Positions 33,976 to 49,755 of a stretch of 64,000 nucleotides of DNA are shown here, one piece after another. Positions within the stretch are counted from its first letter, which is position 1. Each line of letters begins with the position of its first letter. Source of the DNA: Alkalispirochaeta sp. (lineage in GTDB: Bacteria; Spirochaetota; Spirochaetia; DSM-27196; Alkalispirochaetaceae); contig OZ271854.1 in the NCBI GenBank assembly GCA_965601925.1, positions 576,001 through 640,000 of the forward strand, read 5' to 3'. The notes beneath the pieces were generated by a model. The model ran no database searches and was not told the DNA's origin. It saw only the letters and a program-made list of their open reading frames with translations. The translations under genes were made by a program, and so were the position numbers.

Positions 33976-35349
33976 TCAACACCCCATCTTCGTCAGTTGC
34001 TCCTTGGGAATACGAATATGAAACGAGGCGCCGCCGCCCTCCGCATTCCGCGCGTCGATCGTCCACCCGTGACTATCGACAATCGCGCGCGCCGTCGAGA
34101 GGCCGAGCCCGAACCCCGGCTCCTGGCGCGAGTTGGTACCCCGTGCCAAGGGTTCGAACAACTTCTCCGGATCGTTATCGCCGAATCCCGGGCCCGTATC
34201 GTCGACACACACCGTCACCGCGCCGTCGCCTTCGATCCCTGCGGAGACGGTGACGCGGTCGCCTTCGTTCGTGTACCGCAATGCGTTGTGAAAGAGGTTT
34301 TCGAATACGCGTGTGAGAAGCGCCTTGTCGCCCATCACGTTGAGATCGGCGGGAAGGTCGATATCGTAGCCGAATGTGCGGCCGTGGACGCGCGCATCTT
34401 CGGTGAGCACCGCGCAGTGGCGGGTCAGAAACTCGCGGAGGGAGAAGCAGGCGTTCTGCATGCGCCAATCGCCGGTCTCCATACGCACGAACTCAATCAA
34501 CTCCACGATACGGGTTTCCAGAACTTCCGACTTCTGTCGAATGATCGATAGGTATTGAGCCAGCGTCTCCGCACTATCGGCGAGCCCGTCGTCGATCGCC
34601 TCCAGATACCCCCGTATCGTCGTCAACGGCGTCTTGAGGTCGTGAGAGACGCTCATGAGAAAACGCGATCGCTTGGCGTACTCCTCCTTGAGCGTACCCC
34701 GCGTCGCATCGAGATCGCGAGCCAAGTCGGACAGCTCGTCGCTACCCACTACCTCAACCGGGACGTCGAGATTGCCGCCGGCGATGCGTCGAATCGCCTC
34801 ACGGATCGAACTGAGTCGCCGCCGGAAGGAGATGATTGCGAGGTTACCGCCCACCGCTCCGATCAGGACCATACCGAGAAAACCGGCCAGGGCTATGATG
34901 ACGCGTCGCGTCCGACTGAAGAACTCCCGCTGCAGCGCTGCGGGAAAGGCCTGTGCGATCTGAAAGACGCGACCGTTGGCGTTTTCTATATTTTCGAGAA
35001 AGAAGGTGAAGTTGCTTTGCGGCGGACCGTCGAACCCCGGGGGATGATCCAACTCGTCGGCACGATGTCCCTCGACGAGCTCCGGTATCGATGAGAAAAG
35101 CACCGTTCGCTCCGCGTGGTCGATAACGACCACCATGACGCCCTCGGGGGGGAGGATGCCGTCGAAGTTCTCCGTCTCTATGCGCGGACGGATCTCGCGC
35201 TCGATCCAGTCCCGTTGCTCGACAAACCGCGTAATCGTCTCGCTGTCGCGAGAGAACAGCGCGACACCGGCCGAGAGAAGCACCGCGGTGACCGCGGGCA
35301 CCGTCACGATACCGACCATCAGCACGCGGAATTTGTGCTGCAACGTCAC
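33976..35349 (-). CDS. HAMP-containing sensor histidine kinase
   Basis: Two TMs, SHDLKTPLT, ENLFHNALRY, DTGPG and GFGLGL. Confidence 0.95.
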   Translation of the reverse strand: MTLQHKFRVLMVGIVTVPAVTAVLLSAGVALFSRDSETITRFVEQRDWIEREIRPRIETENFDGILPPEGVMVVVIDHAERTVLFSSIPELVEGHRADELDHPPGFDGPPQSNFTFFLENIENANGRVFQIAQAFPAALQREFFSRTRRVIIALAGFLGMVLIGAVGGNLAIISFRRRLSSIREAIRRIAGGNLDVPVEVVGSDELSDLARDLDATRGTLKEEYAKRSRFLMSVSHDLKTPLTTIRGYLEAIDDGLADSAETLAQYLSIIRQKSEVLETRIVELIEFVRMETGDWRMQNACFSLREFLTRHCAVLTEDARVHGRTFGYDIDLPADLNVMGDKALLTRVFENLFHNALRYTNEGDRVTVSAGIEGDGAVTVCVDDTGPGFGDNDPEKLFEPLARGTNSRQEPGFGLGLSTARAIVDSHGWTIDARNAEGGGASFHIRIPKEQLTKMGC

Positions 35350-36050
35350 TGCAACTGGTCCTCGGCGAAGGTATATCCGTATCCGTGAACGGTCACAATG
35401 TAGCGCGGGGAGGAGGGGTCCTCCTCGATTTTGCGCCGTAGTCGCTGAATGTGGACGGCCACCGTTGCGACCTCGCCGAACTGATTACCCCACACCTCTC
35501 TATAGATATCTTCGGGGGACTTTGGTACTCCGGCGTTGCGGACCAGAAAGGTGAGGAGATCGAACTCTCGCGGAGCGAGGGGCACGCGCTCCCCCTCCCG
35601 ACGAAGCAGATAGCTCTCAGGCTCCAGCTGGAACGGTCCGAATCGATAGGTCACACCCAGCGGCACCCGTTCCCGGGCGCGGCGCAGCCTCGTCCTAATA
35701 CGCGCGACGAGCACTTTGGGTGAAAAGGGTTTGGTGACAAAGTCGTCCGCTCCGATTCCCAGTCCCAGAACGATATCGGAATCGTCTTGGCGTGCGGACA
35801 CGATGACGACCGGAATCTGCGTCGTCTTCCGTAACTCCTGCAGCACCTGAAACCCGTCGATTCCCGGTAGGTTGAGATCGAGAATAACCAGATCCCACGT
35901 CTCCTCTCGGAGGGCGGCGAGACCGGCCTCGCCGGTCTCACAGTGGCGCGTATGTACGCCCTCGCGCTCCAGATACATGACGATGAGATTCGCGATATCG
36001 GAATCGTCTTCGATGATAAGAATGGAACCCTTCACATCGACCATTATCAT
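35346..36050 (-). CDS. OmpR-family response regulator
   Basis: IIEDD, ILDLNLP, DFVTKPF and the wHTH VAVHIQRLRRKIE. Exact start uncertain. Confidence 0.95.
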   Translation of the reverse strand: MIMVDVKGSILIIEDDSDIANLIVMYLEREGVHTRHCETGEAGLAALREETWDLVILDLNLPGIDGFQVLQELRKTTQIPVVIVSARQDDSDIVLGLGIGADDFVTKPFSPKVLVARIRTRLRRARERVPLGVTYRFGPFQLEPESYLLRREGERVPLAPREFDLLTFLVRNAGVPKSPEDIYREVWGNQFGEVATVAVHIQRLRRKIEEDPSSPRYIVTVHGYGYTFAEDQLQ

Positions 36051-36103
36051 ACGCGTAATGCACGCCCGCCGCCAGGGGAGCCCGGCGACGGTGTACGCCT
36101 CCA

Positions 36104-39100
36104 CTACTGCGAATCGTGTGCCAACGCGACCTGTGCGGCGTGCGCCGTCGGATCGACTTTACGTACCGTGGACTTGCTGGCGATGAGCGAGTAGAGCACC
36201 GGGACGACGAAGAGCGTCATGAAGGTACTCGAGACCAGCCCCCCGACGATGGTCAACGCCACCGGCTGCGTCGCAACGGCGGCGTCGCCGGGAAAGAACG
36301 CCAACGGCACCATGCCGAGTATGGTCGTAAAGGTGGTCATGAGCACGGGGCGCAACCTGCTGCGTCCCGCCTCGACACATGCATCGATCAGAGACAAGCC
36401 GCGCACGCGCAAAAGGTTGGTGTAATCGACCAACACGATCCCGTTATTTACCACCAGCCCCGCGAGCATGATGAGTCCCATGAAAGAGAACATGCTGAAG
36501 GGTTGACCCATGAGAAAATAGATCCCGATGGCTCCGATCAACATCAAAGGAATCGTGAAGACGATGATAAAGGGTGAACGGAACGACTCGAACTGGCTCG
36601 CCATGACGGCGAAGACCAACAATATCGCCATCGCCAACACGACGAGAAACGCCGACGCGGTCTCGGCGATGACCGCCTGTTCCCCCGAAAAATCGAGTCG
36701 TACCCCTTCATCGAGGGTGATAGTCGACTCGATCGCCGCCTGCAGACGCGCCTGTACTTCAGCCGGCGTATTCTCCGGCAACAGACCGCCTGTCACATTT
36801 ACGATGCGCTGTTCGTTCTCACGCTCGATCGAGACCGGACCGCCTCGCCGTTGGAGTGTCGCGAAGTTGGAAAGGGGCACGACCTCGCCGGCCGAGCTTC
36901 TGAGAAAAATCCGCTCCAAATCGGGAATATCGGACCGATCCTCCTGACGCAGGGTCACAAACAGGTCGATCTCCTCGCCGCTGGAGCGGTACTGCGTCGC
37001 GACGGTACCTTGCACGTTGGCGCGAATCTCCTCGGCTATGTCGGCGACACTCAGACCGAAGGCGTAGGCGCGGGAGCGGTCGATCACCACTTCGAGCTCG
37101 GGCAGGGCGTCCGAGATGCTCAACGTCGGCTCGGTAATCTCCGGAAAGCGGTCGAGCATGAGACGTTGAATCGAGTACGCCGTATCGGTAGCGGCGTCCA
37201 AATCGTCGGCGATGATCGCCACATCGATCGGATCCGAGCCGGACAATGCCGCGCCCTGGCTCTCACTGAAACTGAGCTGCACGCCGGGGAAAAGGTTCGC
37301 ATTATCACGAACGAACTGTTCGATGTCGCCGACCGACGTCGTGCGTTCGCCGACCGTCGGGAGATTCACCGTGACCTCGCCGAGATGTTCGCTGGACGCA
37401 CCCCCGAAGAAGCCTCCTCCGGCCGATCCGGCGGTCACCAGAATGTTCTGAATCTCGTCGAATTCTTCGACGATCATCGTTTCCAGCCGTCTGAGCGAGG
37501 CCTCGGTAACCTCGATGCGCGTACCGACCGGCAGCTCAAACTCGACGGAGATGCTGTCCTCTTCGGTCGGGGGTGCGAATATGATGTCCAGACGCGTAAC
37601 GAGGAGGAGCGATACGACAAGCACGGCAAAGGCGACCACGAGAGTGGCCGCACGCGCCGAAAGAACGCCACGTACCGCGGACGCATAGACTCGGTCGAGC
37701 CATTGGAAAAACTGCTCCATCTTTCTATCGGCGCCGCGAAATACACCCAACTTCTTCTCGCGAGCCTCCGGGGAACGCAGAGGGAGGTAAGTACTGGAAA
37801 GCACCGGCACCAGAAGCACGGCGACGAGGAGGGAAGCGAGGATGGCAAAAATGATCGTAAAGGCGATCTCGCCGAACATGACCCCGATGACATCCAACTC
37901 ACCGCGCATGAGGACGATCGGCAAAAAGACGCTGATCGTCGTCATCGCTGAGGCGGTAATGGCTCCGACCATCTCCTGCGTTCCGAGAACGGCCGCCTTG
38001 TGGGCGTCCAGGCCCTCCGCGCGCCGATTGTAGATGTTCTCCAGAATGACGATCGACGAGTCGACGATCATCCCCAACCCCATGATGAGCCCGGATAATG
38101 AAACGACATTGAGAGAAACGCCGGCGAAGTACATCGCTCCCAAGGTGATCGCCATGGAGATCGGAATCGAGAGAGCGATGATGAGGGTCGTGCGAAGGTT
38201 CCTCAGGAACACGAAGAGCACGAGCGTGGCGAAGGCCAGCCCGATCACGAGGGAGGATGCAACCTCATTGAGGGCGCTGCGAACGATCGTGGTGGAGTCG
38301 TCGACGACCTCGAGTGAGACACCGGAAGGGAGTGTCGGCGCGATGAGCTCGATCTCCGAGCGCACACCGTCGGCAACCTCGACCGAGTTGGTCCCGCTCT
38401 CCTTGCGAATCGAGAGATAGACACCCGGCTCGCCGTTGATATAGGCCGTCTGGTCGACGTCGCTCAGTCCGAACTCAACCTCGGCCACGTCACGCAGGCG
38501 AATCGGCCGCCCGAGGCGGGAGGTCCTTCCGCGAGAGTCGGCCGGAGCGCCGGTGGCGATGACGGTGTTGCGAATCTCGTCCAGGCTCCCAAACTCCCCG
38601 GAAGTCCGCAACAGAAGATTGCGCTCCCCCTCTGCGATCTCACCGCCGCCGACCTGTTGGTTTTGCGTTCTGAGCGCCGCGGCGATCTGCGTGATCGTGA
38701 TGTTCAACGCCTGAAGTCTATTTTGGATCACCTCGACGCGCACCTCGCGCTCGCGCCCCCCTTGAATGTTCGCCTCGCCCACGCCCTCGACGCGTTCGAA
38801 GCGGGGCTGCACGATATCCTCGGCGACCTCGCGCATCTCGGCGGCCGAAAGATTTCCGCGGAGCGCGATGTCCATGATCGGCTGGCTCGAGGGATCGAAC
38901 TTAAGAATCTGCGGGTCCTCGGCCTCGGAGGGAAGCAGAGAACGAACCAGCTCCAACTGATCGCGAATCTCGTTCGTCGCCTCGGTAAGGTCGCTCCCGA
39001 AGACGAACTCCAATACGACCGAGCTGAGCCCTTCAGAGGAGCTGGAACTCATCTCCTCGATACCGCTGACGCTCGATAGCGACCCCTCCAGGATCCGCGT

Positions 39101-39289
39101 CACATTGGTCTCGACCTCCTGGGGCCCGGCGCCGTCGTACTGCGTATTGACGACGATGATCGGGAGCTCGAACTCGGGGAAAAAATCGACGGGTATGTCC
39201 CCGAGACCGAATATCCCCAGCCCCACCAAGACGATGAAGAGCATGATGATCGTTACGGGCCGTCGTACGACCCCTTGTACGAAGTTCAC
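36104..39289 (-). CDS. RND efflux permease (AcrB/BesB-like)
   Basis: 1061 aa; RRPVT, FP....P.I.V.T.Y.GA.P.EVE, IVILENI and RLRPVLMT. Confidence 0.95.
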   Translation of the reverse strand: MNFVQGVVRRPVTIIMLFIVLVGLGIFGLGDIPVDFFPEFELPIIVVNTQYDGAGPQEVETNVTRILEGSLSSVSGIEEMSSSSSEGLSSVVLEFVFGSDLTEATNEIRDQLELVRSLLPSEAEDPQILKFDPSSQPIMDIALRGNLSAAEMREVAEDIVQPRFERVEGVGEANIQGGREREVRVEVIQNRLQALNITITQIAAALRTQNQQVGGGEIAEGERNLLLRTSGEFGSLDEIRNTVIATGAPADSRGRTSRLGRPIRLRDVAEVEFGLSDVDQTAYINGEPGVYLSIRKESGTNSVEVADGVRSEIELIAPTLPSGVSLEVVDDSTTIVRSALNEVASSLVIGLAFATLVLFVFLRNLRTTLIIALSIPISMAITLGAMYFAGVSLNVVSLSGLIMGLGMIVDSSIVILENIYNRRAEGLDAHKAAVLGTQEMVGAITASAMTTISVFLPIVLMRGELDVIGVMFGEIAFTIIFAILASLLVAVLLVPVLSSTYLPLRSPEAREKKLGVFRGADRKMEQFFQWLDRVYASAVRGVLSARAATLVVAFAVLVVSLLLVTRLDIIFAPPTEEDSISVEFELPVGTRIEVTEASLRRLETMIVEEFDEIQNILVTAGSAGGGFFGGASSEHLGEVTVNLPTVGERTTSVGDIEQFVRDNANLFPGVQLSFSESQGAALSGSDPIDVAIIADDLDAATDTAYSIQRLMLDRFPEITEPTLSISDALPELEVVIDRSRAYAFGLSVADIAEEIRANVQGTVATQYRSSGEEIDLFVTLRQEDRSDIPDLERIFLRSSAGEVVPLSNFATLQRRGGPVSIERENEQRIVNVTGGLLPENTPAEVQARLQAAIESTITLDEGVRLDFSGEQAVIAETASAFLVVLAMAILLVFAVMASQFESFRSPFIIVFTIPLMLIGAIGIYFLMGQPFSMFSFMGLIMLAGLVVNNGIVLVDYTNLLRVRGLSLIDACVEAGRSRLRPVLMTTFTTILGMVPLAFFPGDAAVATQPVALTIVGGLVSSTFMTLFVVPVLYSLIASKSTVRKVDPTAHAAQVALAHDSQ

Positions 39290-40239
39290 AGCTCGCCTCC
39301 CCCTTCAACGAAGAGACGGTCGGCGGAGAGTACCTGTACCGAGGATCCCTCTTCGATGACGCTTTGGCCGCGCACGACGACCGGATCGCCCGGTTCGAGT
39401 CCCTCTTGGATCTCCGCGAGTTGATTCTCAATGAGCCCGACCCGGACGGGACGTAACGAAGCGACCGAATCGTCGACCACGGTGAAGATGAAGTCGCGAT
39501 CGGAACGGGTGATGATACTCTCGACGGGAATCACGACGACGTCGTCGCGCGTCTCGGTAATGATCGTCACCTCGGCGAACATCCCCGCCTCCGCTCCCGT
39601 CTCGACCGGATCGACGAGAAAGCGAACCTCCTTAGTACGCGTCGTGGAGTCCAGAAGCGGACTGATCTCGTTGGCCGCCACGGTGAACCGACTGCCCGGA
39701 AAGGCCGACAACTCGACGTCGGCGGTCATACCGGGACGCGCCGCCGAGACAAAACGTTCGGGAATGTCCACAACTACTTCCAACGTGTCGAGCTCGCCGA
39801 CGGCGACGATCGGCGTGGCGGTCGAAACGGTACCCCCCTGATCGACGTATACGGCGGTTACCGTACCGGAGATCGGCGCGGTGACGGGGCTCACCTCAAA
39901 GCGCGCGCCGGGCCGCGAAGGGTCGATGTTCGCCACGACCTGCCCCCTACGGACGCGGTCGCCGAGGCGCACGAACAGACGCTGCACCTCGCCGGCGACC
40001 TCGGGATACGTGTCGACGTTGGTCGTGGGGACCACCTCTCCGTTGAGCCGTATCAAGGAGCGGACGGTACCCGACCGCGCCTCATCAAGCTCGACCGAGT
40101 ACACACGGTCGGTCGCCGCCACCTCGAGATTTCTCCCGCCGGGTCCTCCGTCGCCGCCCAGGACGAAACGGGCGCTTATGACGACAAATAGAATCGAAGC
40201 GGCTATGGTGATGGAAGATACGACTCTCTTCTTTTTCAT
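39286..40239 (-). CDS. RND periplasmic adaptor lacking the alpha-hairpin (BesA-like)
   Basis: The lipoyl halves VRLGDRVRRGQVVA and VTAPISGTV are joined by only a short linker. Confidence 0.88.
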   Translation of the reverse strand: MKKKRVVSSITIAASILFVVISARFVLGGDGGPGGRNLEVAATDRVYSVELDEARSGTVRSLIRLNGEVVPTTNVDTYPEVAGEVQRLFVRLGDRVRRGQVVANIDPSRPGARFEVSPVTAPISGTVTAVYVDQGGTVSTATPIVAVGELDTLEVVVDIPERFVSAARPGMTADVELSAFPGSRFTVAANEISPLLDSTTRTKEVRFLVDPVETGAEAGMFAEVTIITETRDDVVVIPVESIITRSDRDFIFTVVDDSVASLRPVRVGLIENQLAEIQEGLEPGDPVVVRGQSVIEEGSSVQVLSADRLFVEGGGEL

Positions 40240-40250
40240 CGGTGTCTCCT

Positions 40251-41552
40251 TTACTGACTGGTGCGTATGGTTGTATTGAGTGCGTACTCGAGATCGAGCA
40301 GCGTCGATAGATAGGTAAACTGTTCACTGAGCAGCTGATATCGCGCCTCTTCGAGGTCGTCGGCGGCCTCCAGCACGTCGATGAAATCGGTAACGCCCTG
40401 CTGATATGAGTCGAGGGTAAGCAGATAAATCTCTTCCTGGAGGCTGAGGCTGAGTTCGAGCGACTCCAAGGCGACCGCGGAACTCTGCAGCGCCCGCAGG
40501 AGTGAATCCACCTCGAAGCGGGCGTTATCGAGCACGTTCGCGCGCTGGATCTCAAGGGCGCTCAGGATGTCGTCGTTTCCCCGTAGATCGACGCCCGTAG
40601 AGGAAAAGGGCAGATAGTTGTCGAGTGGAATCGTTACCGTAACGCTCAACGAGCCCTGATCGTTCCACTCGTCGCCGGCGGGGTTGTCGGCGTTAAAGGG
40701 ATCGGCGAGAGCGGGGCTGTACGAGGCGCCGAGGGTCACCGTCGGCGTGCGCTCCAACTGTGTGGTGGCGCGGTTGACGCTGCGCCGCGTGGCAATCTGG
40801 GCGTCAATATCCTGCAAATCCCAGCGACCCGTAAGATCGGTGCGCCCGGCAATCTCGTCCAGCCCGTCGAGCGCCTCAACTTCGATGGTACCCTCCAGCT
40901 CGATCACCTGCTCTTCGCGAATCCCCAAAAGGAGGCGAAAGTTCGCCAGCGCATCGTCGTAGGCCGCCTCCTGGCGTTGCAACGTCAGCCGCCTGTTCCG
41001 CAACGTCACCTCCGCCTGGCGTAGCGTCACCTCCGAAACCAACCCGGCATTGAACTCCGTTTGGGTTTGTACCAGCGTCTCTTCGGCCGTCGCGACGCTC
41101 TGCTCGGCGACGGTGATGTTCTGCTCCGCCAGGATCAAGCTGTAGAAGCTCTGACGTACCGCGAGCGCGACGTCGGCGACCGCCTGCTCGTAGGTGATTT
41201 GGTCGTTGATGTACTGCAGCCGCGCCGTCGAGATTCCCTCGATCGAGGCGATCGAGAATACGAGTTGAGCCTCCAAGCGTGCAGAAAACGTCGTATTGTA
41301 CGGATCGGTCGTCGATATCTCCTCGTTGGACCGGGCAAGGGTGCCGCTCACATTCATGGACGGCAGGAGGGCGTTCCACGCCGTATCGGCCGAGCGAGCC
41401 GACGTGGATAGATTGACTCGCCCCTGCGCGAGACTCAGATTCTCGACGATCGCCCGCTCTACCGCCGAGTCTTCGGTGAGCACGATTGTCTGCGCGAATA
41501 CCGGCAGCAAGGCGGTCGAAATCATTAGGATCGTTAGCACTGTTCTTTTCAC
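40251..41552 (-). CDS. TolC-family outer membrane channel
   Basis: Signal peptide, two OEP-type repeats, YQQGVTDFIDVLEA. First gene of the RND operon. Confidence 0.88.
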   Translation of the reverse strand: MKRTVLTILMISTALLPVFAQTIVLTEDSAVERAIVENLSLAQGRVNLSTSARSADTAWNALLPSMNVSGTLARSNEEISTTDPYNTTFSARLEAQLVFSIASIEGISTARLQYINDQITYEQAVADVALAVRQSFYSLILAEQNITVAEQSVATAEETLVQTQTEFNAGLVSEVTLRQAEVTLRNRRLTLQRQEAAYDDALANFRLLLGIREEQVIELEGTIEVEALDGLDEIAGRTDLTGRWDLQDIDAQIATRRSVNRATTQLERTPTVTLGASYSPALADPFNADNPAGDEWNDQGSLSVTVTIPLDNYLPFSSTGVDLRGNDDILSALEIQRANVLDNARFEVDSLLRALQSSAVALESLELSLSLQEEIYLLTLDSYQQGVTDFIDVLEAADDLEEARYQLLSEQFTYLSTLLDLEYALNTTIRTSQ

Positions 41553-41665: not shown

Positions 41666-42736
41666 CTAAACCGTAGCAACTTCTTTTATTATTTGTAATT
41701 GCATAAGAAACGACCTCGATACGTGCATCCGTCGCTCGAGCGGATGTATGCCCCGGCGCGCGCGCAACGGTCCCCTGCCGGCAAACGCCGAACGCGCCTG
41801 TGCGGACGCGTACACGCGCGCCCGTCGAGATGCGGCGAGTGGGCGGTAGCGGTGACGATGAAACGTCAACGGAAATCGTCCGGTGGCGTATGCGCACGTC
41901 AGGAGGTTCGTGAAAAGCGCGCCACGGGGTTGCGTCAACTCCTCGTCCGAAACGCCGAATACGCGCTCGAACGATCCGATACGCGAGAACCGATCGAGAT
42001 CGCCGGTGACGGCCGCCGGAGCGTTGAGGGAGACGACCGTTCCGCGGCCGGATGACCGCCCGAGCCCGTACGATCTCACGCCTGCGGCGGACTGCGCCGG
42101 TGCAGCGTTACGGGACGGAGCCTGGTGTTCATCGGCGGGTGCGGATAGGCGGCGCCATAAACGGGTTGCCGCCTCGTCGATACGATCGACTCCATCGCCC
42201 GAACCCGATGCGAACCGGAACCGCGTGTGGCCTGATCGGGTCGCGAGCTCCACCGCCAAGGAGAGGGCGGGCGCCCACCGACCGACTACGGTGACCTCAT
42301 CGCTCTCCAACAACCGCTCAACGAGTTGATGCCGGAGCGTCGCGTCGACAATCGCTCGATCGCCCGCCGTCTCACGATACGTTGATACGATCCCATCGTA
42401 GAGGCCGTAGGACGGAGTGCACAGAAGCGCCTTGAAACCGACGGTTCGCACTGCTCCGTCGGGCGAGCGCATCGTGATGGAGTCGGCATCGATATCGATC
42501 GGATCGGCGACGAGATACCCGTCTATCGGAAGGAACTCATCGACATCCCGGACGAACGCCTCTACCGGATATCCGGCGACAAGCGCGCCGGCAAAGTACG
42601 GATCGTATATCCGAGTCGTGGGAGTGACCAAGGCGGCCGGAACCAATCGTCGTAAGGCGGCGGTCCAGGCGATCGCCGTCGGGCCGTTACCGACGATGAA
42701 TATGTGGTCGTCGCCTATGTCTCGCAGGTGTGCCAT
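41666..42736 (-). CDS. Hypothetical protein with degenerate FAD/NAD Rossmann motifs
   Basis: GGAG SD. HIFIVGNGPTAIA and VTVVGRWAPAL resemble two dinucleotide-binding starts. 3' end uncertain. Confidence 0.5.
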   Translation of the reverse strand: MAHLRDIGDDHIFIVGNGPTAIAWTAALRRLVPAALVTPTTRIYDPYFAGALVAGYPVEAFVRDVDEFLPIDGYLVADPIDIDADSITMRSPDGAVRTVGFKALLCTPSYGLYDGIVSTYRETAGDRAIVDATLRHQLVERLLESDEVTVVGRWAPALSLAVELATRSGHTRFRFASGSGDGVDRIDEAATRLWRRLSAPADEHQAPSRNAAPAQSAAGVRSYGLGRSSGRGTVVSLNAPAAVTGDLDRFSRIGSFERVFGVSDEELTQPRGALFTNLLTCAYATGRFPLTFHRHRYRPLAASRRARVYASAQARSAFAGRGPLRARRGIHPLERRMHVSRSFLMQLQIIKEVATV

Positions 42737-42858: not shown

Positions 42859-42944
42859 CGTTCGTTTAAACGATCGCGGTCCTCGACGCGTCGTGTCCGC
42901 GTTCATCCGGAACGGGCGAACGGACTGCGCCGGGCGCGGGTCAC

Positions 42945-43002
42945 AAAAAAACCTCACCCGTTCGGTCACGAGCGCGTCGGCCTGCTTCCGAACGGGTGAG
43001 GT
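42945..43002 (-). terminator. Intrinsic terminator
   Basis: Perfect 15-bp stem (42951-42965 with 42988-43002), 22-nt loop, T7 run on the minus strand. Confidence 0.8.
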
Positions 43003-43030
43003 GAATCCTAAGATCCCGAGAAGGAATCCG
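42945..43030 (-). ncRNA. Candidate small regulatory RNA (~85 nt) divergent from the porin gene
   Basis: Bounded by its own -10 (TATGAT 43042-43037) and an intrinsic terminator. No start codon with SD inside. Confidence 0.6.
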
Positions 43031-43036
43031 AGATAG

Positions 43037-43079
43037 ATCATAACGAGGCGACGTGAACGGGAGGTGAAGCGGAGCTGAA
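43037..43079 (-). promoter_or_regulatory. Promoter with three 11-bp-phased TTCA repeats
   Basis: Minus strand: TTCAG-N6-TTCAC-N6-TTCAC-N10-TATGAT. Confidence 0.7.
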
Positions 43080-43127
43080 GTCTTGCTGTATGTTGCGACG
43101 GTCGCCCGAGCACCTCATCAGGGCGTT

Positions 43128-43170
43128 TTCAGTTCCCGTTCAGCTTGCGTTCATATTGCTCAGCTATAGT
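43128..43170 (+). promoter_or_regulatory. Porin promoter with three 11-bp-phased TTCA repeats
   Basis: Plus strand: TTCAG-N6-TTCAG-N6-TTCAT-N10-TATAGT. Confidence 0.7.
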
Positions 43171-44532: not shown

Positions 44533-45285
44533 TCACGATGCGGGGGATAGTGCGGCGGGAGACGGCACCGGGGAACCGCCGAACTGGTACCCGTATCCTC
44601 GAATCGTCTCGATCCAATCGGGCCATCCCAGTTTCTTCCGTATGTTCTTGACATGGGCATCCAATGAACGCAGATAGCTGCTCGTATACTCGTACCCCAT
44701 GCACTCCTGTACAATCGCGTCGCGCGCGCAGTTCTTCTCGGCGCGATACGCGAGATACCGCAGGACTTTCCATTCGGTTTCGGTCACCCTGAGCGCCTTC
44801 CCATCCAGAAAGACCTTATGGGCGTCGTCGTCGATGGTGAGCGTACTCCCGTGGAGCCGCCAAGAGCGACGTATATCCGAGGTCTGCTGCGCCGCGGAGT
44901 AATCCGAAGTGGAGGCGTGAAGTATTCCGGCGATACGGAGCGCAATCTCGCGCATCGAGAACGCCTGATCGATAATGCCGCTGGCTCCGATTCGTAACAA
45001 GTTGAGTCGGTCACCCTCGCCGATTGCGGTGCTTACCACGATGACGACGCGCTGGTGCCCCAGAGCCAACTCCCGCACGGTGTCGAAGGCGAGCCGCTTT
45101 CGCCCAAAATCGCCCACGACGACCGTCGGTGTCGGATACGGTTTCGTATCGACGGGTCGCGAGACAACTTCACGAATGCTGGAACACGCGACGATCGAAT
45201 AGCCCAAGAGCGCCAACTCGTTTTGCAAGGGTCGACTCGTCTTCTCATCGAGAGTCAGGACTTCAATTTCGATACCATGCATCAT
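44533..45285 (-). CDS. Orphan OmpR-family regulator with atypical receiver
   Basis: Clear wHTH (LRVTETEWKVL...RSLDAHVKNIRKKLG...TIRGYGY). The receiver has IIDQAF in place of KPF. Confidence 0.85.
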   Translation of the reverse strand: MMHGIEIEVLTLDEKTSRPLQNELALLGYSIVACSSIREVVSRPVDTKPYPTPTVVVGDFGRKRLAFDTVRELALGHQRVVIVVSTAIGEGDRLNLLRIGASGIIDQAFSMREIALRIAGILHASTSDYSAAQQTSDIRRSWRLHGSTLTIDDDAHKVFLDGKALRVTETEWKVLRYLAYRAEKNCARDAIVQECMGYEYTSSYLRSLDAHVKNIRKKLGWPDWIETIRGYGYQFGGSPVPSPAALSPAS

Positions 45286-45458
45286 TCTCTCCAAGTGTGG
45301 ACTACCCCCGTACGAGAACTATGGTATACACGCTGGACGACGACATTGAATCGACGGAATACCACACGTCGACGCGCATTCGTCGAGAGAAACGACGTTG
45401 GTTCCGACGATGTCGCCTAACGGGACAATCGGGCCGTCGGCGCCGAGTACGGCGACGC

Positions 45459-46115
45459 CTACGCGCTTTCCATCCGCCGCGTAGCATCGTCGACGAGGGT
45501 GAGAAACTCACGACTGACCGGCGGCATTCGGGCGTTCAGAAGGTCGGGCGTCGCGATGAAGAAGTTTGCAACGAGGAACGCCGCAATGTCCTCGACCGAT
45601 ACGCGGCAATCCTCTTTCACCCACCACGATAGGAGCCCGAGAAGGCTTCCGGCCAGCAGGTGCGCCAGAACGACGAGGGGCATCCTCGGCGTGCTGTGAT
45701 TATGATCGACGACGTGGGTCAGGCGGTGGCGAAATGCATCGACGGCGGAGTCGCGCATCCTCAAGACGAAGTCTCCCGAGCCTCGCGGGCCGAACATAAG
45801 CTTGTAAAAGTCGAGATTGTGTTTGATGTGGGTAAGCATAGCAAGGGTGTATTGCCGCGGTTTGTCGATCCCGTTGTCCTCCATCTCTTCCGGCACGGAC
45901 CAGAGGGTGTTCCAGATCTCGTCGAGCATTTCGTCCATGCCTCGCGTAAACAGGTCGCTCTTATCCTCGTAGTGTCGGTAAAACGTCGTTCGATTGACCA
46001 TCGCTCGCTCGGCGATCTCGGCGACGGTAATCGCCTCGTACGATTTCTCGTTCATGAGGTCCATGAGCGCCTGGCGCAGTATCTGCTTTGTTCTACGAAC
46101 CCGTAAGTCCGGCAT
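45459..46115 (-). CDS. TetR/AcrR-family regulator
   Basis: DLRVRRTK...ITVAEIAERAMVNRTTFYRHYEDK. Confidence 0.93.
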   Translation of the reverse strand: MPDLRVRRTKQILRQALMDLMNEKSYEAITVAEIAERAMVNRTTFYRHYEDKSDLFTRGMDEMLDEIWNTLWSVPEEMEDNGIDKPRQYTLAMLTHIKHNLDFYKLMFGPRGSGDFVLRMRDSAVDAFRHRLTHVVDHNHSTPRMPLVVLAHLLAGSLLGLLSWWVKEDCRVSVEDIAAFLVANFFIATPDLLNARMPPVSREFLTLVDDATRRMESA

Positions 46116-46357: not shown

Positions 46358-47197
46358 TCAAAAACGATACGAGACGAACACTCCGCCATTGAACTGCTCA
46401 CCTTGTTGCACGATCGGACTATCCTCGGCGTCTCCGGTAATCCACGTATAGCCGAACGTACCGTTGAGGAGCCAGCGCTCCCCGAGGACATACATGACGC
46501 CTACGTTCGTTCCCAGTGCGTAAAAGCCGGCGTCGGCGTCATGTCGATTCAGACCGGAGCGTACGGCCTGCTCACCGTTCACGCCGAAGTAGCGTTCCAT
46601 ATAGGTTTCGTTCGCCCACTCGGCCGAAAAACCGAGCATAACGGCGGGTCCGGGAGGCGGTCCTCCGCCGCCCATTTCTCCCGGACGAATGTCGCCGGTC
46701 ACCATTGCAAGGGGAACCATGGCGCGCACGCCTACCTCGGCCGTGAGGCCGTCGGTTCCGCCGAGGTGTTGCGTGAGCGTTCCATAGGGCGTGACGGGCC
46801 CGAGTCGATACTCGAATCCACCGTTGACCGTCACCGCGGGATCGATATCGCCGAGACCGTTGAGATCGTCGTGGTCATCGGGGCGCCCGGTGGAGTATCC
46901 GAGACCGCTCGAAATGGTGAAGCCGCCTCCGCGGTACAGATGCACACCGATTCCGCGCGGGACGCTGAGATATAAGCGATCGTTCCACTCGATGTTTACC
47001 ATCGGCAGGACGCGCAGTTCCATCTCGTCGGCGCCGTCGTAGGCCGAGCCGTATAGGGACCCGACGCCGACGGATATATCCCACATCCCCGCCTCGACGA
47101 GCCGATCGCCGTCGGCGTCTACCGGACGGGGAGACGCTACCATACACAGCGCCGCGACCATCATCATCGTCGCGGCGCTCGACGAGCCTCTTACCAT
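46358..47197 (-). CDS. MipA/OmpV-family outer membrane protein (copy 1)
   Basis: YDGAD..RVLP, LNGLGDID, YMERYFGV and GDAEDSPIV...YRF. Confidence 0.88.
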   Translation of the reverse strand: MVRGSSSAATMMMVAALCMVASPRPVDADGDRLVEAGMWDISVGVGSLYGSAYDGADEMELRVLPMVNIEWNDRLYLSVPRGIGVHLYRGGGFTISSGLGYSTGRPDDHDDLNGLGDIDPAVTVNGGFEYRLGPVTPYGTLTQHLGGTDGLTAEVGVRAMVPLAMVTGDIRPGEMGGGGPPPGPAVMLGFSAEWANETYMERYFGVNGEQAVRSGLNRHDADAGFYALGTNVGVMYVLGERWLLNGTFGYTWITGDAEDSPIVQQGEQFNGGVFVSYRF

Positions 47198-48827: not shown

Positions 48828-49625
48828 TCAAAAGCGATACATCACGAGGAGCGCGGTGACGTACTGGTTTTCATTCCGCACGATCGGACTGTCCGCCGCA
48901 TCCCCGATGAGGCGGGAGTATTCGAACGACGCGGTGGCAAAAAACCGAGCGCTCAAGGGATACATGAGGGCGATGCTACCCCCGAGGGACTTAAACCCCG
49001 CCTCGGCGTCGTGGCGCTCCAGCCCGGACCGCGTCGCCTGCTCGGCATCGACACCGAAGTACGAACTCATATACCGATCATCGGCCCAACTGACCGCCAC
49101 CGCGGGTGCAATCGCCGGTCGCGGTCCGTTTTGGTCCGCCGGCCGTCCGAGAGGAATCCGTCCCCCGACTTCCAACGACGCCTCCACACCGTCGGACCCG
49201 CCGACGTACCGCTTTGCCGAGAGGCCGGTCGTAATCGGTCCTACCTCGTATTCGATCCCGAAATTGACTGTAGGGGCGCGATCTATGTCGCCGAGCCCCG
49301 ACAACGCGTCGTCGTCGTCGCGACCGAAGTCGTAGCCGATACCGATATTCGCCTCGATATTGCGGTTGTTATAGAGCGTTACCCCGAGTTCTTCCGGTAT
49401 CGTAAGATAGATACGGTCGTTCCACACGAGGCGAACCATCGGCACCGGGGAGACGCGCATATCGTCCGCCCCTTCGTATCGAGGAGAGAGAGCCACACCC
49501 GCACCGATCGATAACTCCCACGGAGAGTCGTCGTGTTGCTGTGCCGCAAGGGGTACCCTCGTTACAAGAATTACCGCCGCGATCGACAACACGGCGCGCG
49601 CCGTATCTAACGTGATCGTTCTCAT
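48828..49625 (-). CDS. MipA/OmpV-family outer membrane protein (copy 2)
   Basis: PRYEGAD, LSGLGDID, YMSSYFGV and GDAADSPIV...YRF. Confidence 0.88.
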   Translation of the reverse strand: MRTITLDTARAVLSIAAVILVTRVPLAAQQHDDSPWELSIGAGVALSPRYEGADDMRVSPVPMVRLVWNDRIYLTIPEELGVTLYNNRNIEANIGIGYDFGRDDDDALSGLGDIDRAPTVNFGIEYEVGPITTGLSAKRYVGGSDGVEASLEVGGRIPLGRPADQNGPRPAIAPAVAVSWADDRYMSSYFGVDAEQATRSGLERHDAEAGFKSLGGSIALMYPLSARFFATASFEYSRLIGDAADSPIVRNENQYVTALLVMYRF

Positions 49626-49755
49626 CTTTTTTACCCTCCACTGTGTTTTAGCGACACACCGCGATTCGGCCGAACGAAGCGCCGGGTTTCGACGCGCCGC
49701 CGGCGGCACGGTCAAGGTCGCTACGGCCGAACGTGCCGTACGGAGGGGTAAAGGT

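Follow-up and report, generated by a model that had tools for sequence, protein, structure and literature searches.

An 85-base RNA encoded beside a porin gene (porin A) in Alkalispirochaeta sp. is very probably a real regulatory RNA gene that, judging from its complementarity, is built to silence the message of the main porin (porin B). We put the probability at roughly four in five that it acts as an independently transcribed, trans-acting antisense sRNA and forms the repressing arm of a porin switch. The initial annotation of the window (the whole stretch of DNA analysed here, 64,000 nucleotides in length) had proposed a small RNA divergent from the porin gene in a layout resembling micF/ompC. 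The features on which our reading is built are collected in Table 1.

Table 1. Coordinates of the RNA gene, its parts and its neighbours in the window
Feature	Position	Strand	Remarks
Predicted small RNA, 85 nt	42945..43029	-	Probable +1 at G43029; 7 nt past the -10 box
Intrinsic terminator: 15-bp stem, 22-nt loop, U-run	42945..43002	-	Hairpin alone z = -6.6
Conserved 5' seed, RNA nt 1-14	43016..43029	-	Complementary to porin B ribosome-binding site, -17 to -4
Second pairing site, RNA nt 15-27	43003..43015	-	13 Watson-Crick pairs with porin B -71 to -59
Activator-type RNA promoter: TACA and three TTCA boxes, 11-bp spacing, -10 TATGAT, no -35	43037..43090	-	
Mirror-image porin A promoter: ATCA and three TTCA boxes, -10 TATAGT	43117..43170	+	
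Porin A, 393 aa	43272..44453	+	Putative co-induced alternative porin
Atypical OmpR/PhoB-family regulator, candidate activator	44533..45294	-	Trans_reg_C, no Pfam receiver domain
RND efflux operon (OEP, HlyD, AcrB) with response regulator and histidine kinase	33976..41552	-	Pfam

The RNA gene and its promoter

The RNA gene has its own promoter and an intrinsic terminator and contains no reading frame. As the initial annotation had it, no protein gene lies in the roughly 85 nt between promoter and terminator: there is no ATG, and two GTG codons are followed by no stop before the terminator. The perfect 15-bp stem that it described (43002-42988 paired with 42965-42951 around a 22-nt loop) is present, but the T7 run (A at 42945-42951 on the plus strand) overlaps the stem by one base, its own first and the stem's last, and the tail is properly either 15 bp followed by U6 or 14 bp followed by U7. 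An 88-nt stretch folds at -43.7 kcal/mol (z = -5.4), a value equalled by none of 200 shuffles, and a scan of the whole genome (5.05 Mb) for perfect stems of at least 15 bp followed by T6 returned this terminator as its sole match (six matches when stems of at least 12 bp were allowed). The locus is single-copy in the genome by blastn and is therefore not a REP-like or MITE repeat. A proposed 5' hairpin (GGAUUCC-UUCUC-GGGAUCU) can form, locking part of the seed into seven base pairs, but taken alone it is not significant (z = -0.2, with 76 of 200 shuffles as good) and it is absent from both homologues described below. The layout is thus that of an unstructured or weakly folded 5' arm followed by a terminator. 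The window contains no Rfam match at the gathering threshold, in line with the first impression, in which the RNA was not recognised as one of a known family, and the three RNA-carrying loci likewise gave none at E ≤ 1. In three contig-only runs from one sample the stretch was matched without differences. Apart from a 2-nt insertion, 14 nt of the promoter boxes of the RNA (43054-43069) recur at the base of the terminator (42988-43005), a possible hint of local duplication as the origin of the stem in this genome.

The promoter is of an activator-dependent type. A minus-strand -10 box with phased upstream repeats had been noted at the outset, and both are found: TATGAT occupies 43042-43037, 15 nt after the last of three TTCA boxes that start at 43079, 43068 and 43057, and a weaker TACA box begins at 43090. 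The porin A promoter has the same geometry on the opposite strand (TTCA at 43128, 43139 and 43150, with TATAGT 15 nt past the start of the last box), and together the two form an inverted repeat of 26 nt (77%). When a weight matrix built from four porin promoters only was run on both genome strands (10 million positions), the porin A promoter ranked first (36.4 bits) and the RNA promoter second (29.0 bits), with the best unrelated site at 19.6. The RNA promoter lacks a -35 hexamer, and for this reason a generic promoter scanner did not detect it. A promoter in which direct repeats spaced 11 bp apart replace the -35 box is typical of activation by members of the OmpR/PhoB family.

One candidate activator is the atypical regulator encoded beyond porin A; the 4 of 16 genus genomes that have its best orthologues (E ≤ 1e-48) are those that have porin A. 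The other candidate is the response regulator and histidine kinase pair of the efflux operon (regulator gene at 35346-36044). Homologues of that operon adjoin porin A in one relative (G003) and a small protein gene in another (G001:C7). The box architecture common to the two promoters, and the co-occurrence of the regulator, are consistent with control of the RNA and porin A by one OmpR-family protein through putative binding at the boxes. At locus L054 of the second relative (G001:C7:46000-50000) the RND and response-regulator homologues are split tblastn pieces, which suggests frameshifts or assembly errors.

Porin A is, in its predicted model (pLDDT 61, an all-beta barrel), a porin-type barrel, with Campylobacter MOMP and OmpF/OmpC-type porins as best fold matches. 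Its Atlas neighbours are named as porins or major outer membrane proteins of Spirochaetota (score 0.97), in support of the spirochaete origin that the initial annotation thought probable, and it has no Pfam match. Orthologues are present in 4 of the 21 other family genomes; a metagenome scan with the porin A alignment gave 262 candidates, none of them confirmed.

Homologues of the RNA in related genomes

A DNA search of 41 genomes with a 701-bp region as query returned no homologue, and the homologues were reached through the promoter pattern only. A search with that pattern in five genomes located two further RNA promoters (G001:C1:97887-97929 and G009:C139:5475-5517). In both, a GGATTCYTTCTCG seed lies 6-7 nt past the -10 box and is followed by a long stem and a T-run, giving RNAs of 68 and 96 nt (85 in the present genome, G000) that open, as the original does, with GGATTC. 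Twelve of the first 13 seed nucleotides are identical in all three. The conservation of promoter and hairpin in relatives on which the original proposal hinged is therefore seen as a recurring architecture of promoter, seed and terminator, in three distinct sequences from one genus, two of them closely alike. Across the order, promoter plus seed with at most two mismatches was found in 3 of 99 genomes (G000, G001 and G009), a count in which G003 (site past the contig end) and G010 (no TetR orthologue) were not scorable; a backwards-pattern control gave none. The promoter pattern by itself added just two AT-rich matches, in G093, and seed-only matches in G003, G010 and G017 were rejected, since they lie in coding or target sequence. 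A metagenome pattern scan yielded 92 stretches, of which 80 had flanks that could be examined: one was identical to the G009 copy, and so not independent, and the other 79, which had neither the three boxes nor the terminator, served as a negative control.

The stems of the G001 and G009 copies differ at four aligned pairs, all of which still pair (one G-C/A-U double change and three wobble changes), and the G000 stem cannot be aligned to them. Neither copy is divergent from a porin; they lie about 9 kb away or on another contig. That part of the initial description accordingly holds for G000 only. At the corresponding place in each of the three relatives with the region assembled, where the porin A promoter geometry is kept, the divergent promoter drives a signal-peptide protein of about 130 amino acids, a gene not found in G000. 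The small-protein loci (L005:2885-3283, L004, L006 and G001:C7:42414-42791) belong to the same TTCA-box regulon in the relatives; the protein has a conserved C-terminal PVY.EFGPLYWG motif, only weak Atlas neighbours, and no Pfam or NCBIfam family. A further three-box promoter (L102, G010:C124:11292-11334) drives a secreted, possibly TPR-like protein, an apparent homologue of which sits just downstream of porin A in G001.

These small-protein genes raise the alternative that the RNA is a vestige, namely the promoter, 5' leader and terminator left behind after the loss of the secreted-protein gene, and a TCGGGA..AGGA motif common to the RNA and the small-protein leaders would agree with this. 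We nevertheless regard a vestige as highly improbable, and the homologues appear largely to refute it: G001 carries both the small-protein gene and an RNA unit, and the G000 promoter can be aligned with those of the RNA homologues and reaches a score of 29.0, where the small-protein promoters reach 6.9-17.0.

The homologues bear in the same way on a second alternative, that the RNA is a leader or attenuator governing read-through into the downstream gene and efflux operon. The stem is strong and all three copies point into an efflux cluster, as this would require. The downstream gene, however, differs (a 356-aa gene in G000, a TetR gene in G001 and G009), a separate promoter for the TetR genes (TTGAC-17-TATAGT, serving the TetR-efflux operon) begins just 7-9 nt beyond the terminator, there is no leader peptide, and the conserved part is a 5' single strand that matches a distant mRNA. 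An attenuator is in our estimate very unlikely. In G014 this TetR gene is present without the RNA and without porin A.

Since promoter, seed and terminator recur together at a different spot, they form a free-standing unit rather than a leader or a vestige; that such an RNA is real we consider highly likely. A block that moves while its 5' single strand is kept and its terminator drifts shows the pattern of a trans-acting sRNA. In all three genomes the RNA is linked to RND efflux clusters, which points to stress on the envelope or from toxic compounds.

Complementarity to the porin B leader

Porin B (G000:C1:2532659-2533759), the one detectable paralogue of porin A, lies 1.9 Mb away (tblastn E 4.6e-7) and was found as such before any target search. 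Its promoter, TTGACA-17-TATACT, is close to consensus and is followed by a leader of 72 nt. The RNA's seed is complementary to its ribosome-binding site over 14 contiguous pairs, four of them G.U. The second site is the complement of the predicted first 13 transcribed bases of the porin B mRNA, and its 13-mer occurs exactly twice in the genome. Among 4348 leaders (-150 to +30) the perfect 13-nt match is found in porin B only, the next best being 11. On the mRNA the two sites follow each other in antiparallel order, one on either side of a hairpin in the porin B leader; when RNA and leader are cofolded they form a single complex, with every one of the 27 bases that precede the terminator paired. 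This two-site pattern is confined to G000 among the family genomes, with four unrelated-looking matches elsewhere. The second site is absent from the G001 and G009 homologues, whose terminator starts at nt 16 and whose stem base loosely resembles it.

When the RNA was cofolded with 4350 start regions, taken from a rough gene calling made for this analysis, porin B ranked first at -22.5 kcal/mol (next -14.1, mean -3.6, s.d. 2.3), in a window of -75 to +25 that was chosen after the 13-nt match had been seen; just 1 of 1500 dinucleotide shuffles of nt 1-28 did as well. In a window set before the 13-mer was seen (-45 to +20), porin B ranked 8th of 4350 and first of 135 genes with a strong Shine-Dalgarno sequence. 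Other measures separate it less: by plain duplex energy 11 of the 4350 start regions at least equal porin B for nt 1-14, and with nt 1-34 in a window omitting the 5' site porin B falls to 167th; 107 of 5000 shuffles reached its alignment score. On this evidence porin B is probably the main target of the RNA, and the idea that the RNA represses a different porin from the one beside it gains support from complementarity to that porin's translation start region, the repression itself being a prediction.

Another reading of the same complementarity accepts the sRNA but makes it a broad anti-Shine-Dalgarno regulator, for which porin B would be one target among many and for which porin A (as feedback) and a ribosomal-protein-S2-like gene would be equally relevant. 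Of the 14 seed positions, 12 also pair with the porin A start region, a 10-nt core match occurs in 16 of 4350 start regions, and porin A comes second among the 135 strong-SD genes. With the whole leader included, however, porin B leads the next gene by 8 kcal/mol, and seed nt 1-4 match the spacer of porin B, not of porin A, in all genomes tested. Such a broad role seems unlikely to us, though side targets including porin A are likely on the strength of these matches. The adjacent porin A was itself considered as the main target and rejected, having ranked 15th of 4350 at first and 89th with full leaders. An 11-nt seed match at the ribosome-binding site of the gene G000:C1:3587216, whose product resembles ribosomal protein S2 by its motif, marks a possible side target.

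The pairing can be followed in one relative. Against its own porin B leader the G001 seed forms 14 bp at -22.2 kcal/mol, a value that none of the 4350 G000 start regions equals and that is 8 kcal/mol ahead of the pairing with its own porin A; a shuffle test is weak here (55 of 1500 as good) because the 15-mer is low in complexity. In G009 the porin B leader is not assembled. RNA gene and target differ at four positions in G000 and at two in G001, one of them common, and within limits that were themselves drawn by pairing all of these differences are G.U wobbles in the polarity of RNA on mRNA, a pattern more readily explained by RNA pairing than by a DNA motif common to both. Compensatory covariation between RNA and target was looked for and none was found. 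The G000 RNA pairs better with a G001-type leader (-32.1) than with its own (-23.8).

The target side is conserved more widely than the RNA. A search with the porin B protein found it in 0 of 21 relatives, and counterparts were reached by synteny through a neighbouring gene present in 17 of 22 family genomes. The promoter and leader are conserved at nine syntenic family loci, with the 13-mer exact in eight and bearing two changes in one, while the syntenic genes are only 22-28% identical to G000 porin B. Both of the two syntenic relatives tested match NF033926, a model of Msp porins, at E 7e-13 and 3e-14 but with scores under its cut-off; the G000 protein does not match it, and the structure model of porin B is unusable (pLDDT 31). 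Porin B thus appears to be an Msp-like outer-membrane protein, an identity weaker than that of porin A. Across the family the promoter and leader (G000:C1:2532588-2532661, syntenic with L063-L076) are almost invariant, and the G000 leader contains a GGAATC(C)TAAGAT motif twice.

Because the 5' site of porin B is conserved in genomes that have no RNA, another factor may use it. One could go further and suppose that the shared sequences are DNA sites for a transcription factor, or that the RNA is a CsrA decoy, with the complementarity a by-product. The 13-mer is nearly palindromic and lies at +1 of porin B in eight genomes, CsrA is present, and the G000 RNA has four GGA motifs. Against DNA sites, the 13-mer is missing from two RNA homologues in which the SD-pairing seed is kept, and every seed difference is compatible with wobble pairing in one polarity. 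RNAs of the CsrB/Rsm kind carry many conserved GGA motifs in loops; here the counts are 4, 1 and 5 across the three copies, mostly in stems, and only the GGA at +1 is shared. Neither version strikes us as anything but very improbable, and we return to the antisense sRNA in what follows.

A putative porin switch and its known counterparts

In the proposed mechanism, an OmpR/PhoB-family regulator would bind the phased TTCA boxes and turn on porin A and the RNA from their back-to-back promoters. Nucleotides 1-14 of the RNA would then cover the Shine-Dalgarno region of the porin B mRNA, which a sigma70-type promoter drives, and block ribosome loading. In G000, nt 15-27 would also grip the first 13 bases of the mRNA, with the leader hairpin looped out in a 27-bp three-way junction; pairing may enter through an exposed loop (nt 8-12) or through the linker (nt 20-27). 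The cell would in this way exchange its main porin B for porin A under envelope or efflux-linked stress. No match to Hfq (PF17209) or ProQ (PF04352) was found in the one-contig, 96.7% complete genome, in which the controls were positive and proteins of the Jag_N (KhpB-type) and CsrA families are present. The circuit would run without Hfq, and the long pairing would make a chaperone less necessary.

MicF is described as a 93-nt RNA that is divergent to ompC, is induced along with it by EnvZ-OmpR (PMC5745476) and base-pairs with ompF mRNA across the ribosome-binding site and the start codon (PMC5745476; PMC5415839 for the overall description), and MicC, encoded opposite ompN, as a repressor of ompC (PMC5745476). 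The present RNA resembles MicF in its similar size, its position divergent to one porin, the shared OmpR-type boxes and a 5' seed predicted to lie over the ribosome-binding site of another porin. With the porin B leader at the top of 4350 and 27 consecutive RNA bases paired, the analogy originally drawn to micF/ompC survives. It differs from MicF in that it has no sequence relation to it (no Rfam match at the gathering threshold or at E ≤ 1), belongs to another phylum, comes from a genome in which no Hfq or ProQ was found, has the divergent layout in G000 only, and uses a second site that grips the very 5' end of its target.

OmrA and OmrB also combine a conserved 5' seed with a terminator, are activated by a response regulator and repress outer-membrane protein mRNAs, but they are Hfq-dependent, multi-target and enterobacterial, and have no sequence match to this RNA. 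Nearer in lineage is OspR (SR0899) of Borrelia burgdorferi, presented in a 2026 preprint (PMC13734083) as a base-pairing sRNA that represses ospA in an organism without Hfq; the likeness, compared for homology through Rfam only, is that of a spirochaete sRNA lowering the mRNA of an abundant envelope protein without that chaperone. We regard the RNA described here as a new family of sRNA, of a functional kind already known, whose target is unusually clear; it is not a member of the MicF family.

Few base-pairing sRNAs with a validated target are known from spirochaetes, where Hfq is mostly missing. Our literature search, which left most subscription journals outside its reach, found no paper that deals with sRNAs in this genus or with the control of Msp by an sRNA. 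A bolder reading, which we hold as tentative and at slightly less than even odds, is that the whole micF/ompC/ompF circuit arose independently, with no Hfq involved, in free-living spirochaetes, and that G000 shows it tightened: the RNA gene would have replaced the small protein gene at the porin's divergent promoter, a step to which the same tentative odds apply, and, no more firmly, its 27 bases, with the perfect 13-nt site, would clamp both ends of the leader around its hairpin. Spirochaetes may also have other porin-switch RNAs linked to efflux clusters, each with a seed of its own, in which case this RNA would belong to a wider class. If the main reading is true, a distant phylum came to porin exchange by antisense RNA through convergence, an Msp-like major sheath protein is controlled in part after transcription, and an sRNA may be able to do without a chaperone by pairing at length at two sites. 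With the promoter, seed, target and exact pairs named, a handful of mutations would test it.

Other features of the locus were also observed. The 356-aa gene downstream of the RNA (41666-42736, minus strand) has no Pfam or NCBIfam match, and its distant homologues (29-35%) in G001 and G009 lie between the RND pump and the atypical regulator. Upstream of it, a near-perfect 16-bp palindrome around GTTTAAAC (42860-42876) is a possible operator; a TetR gene is found at 45459-46115 in the window. Two genes for MipA/OmpV-family outer-membrane proteins (46358-47197 and 48828-49715) flank an alpha/beta hydrolase gene near the porin locus.
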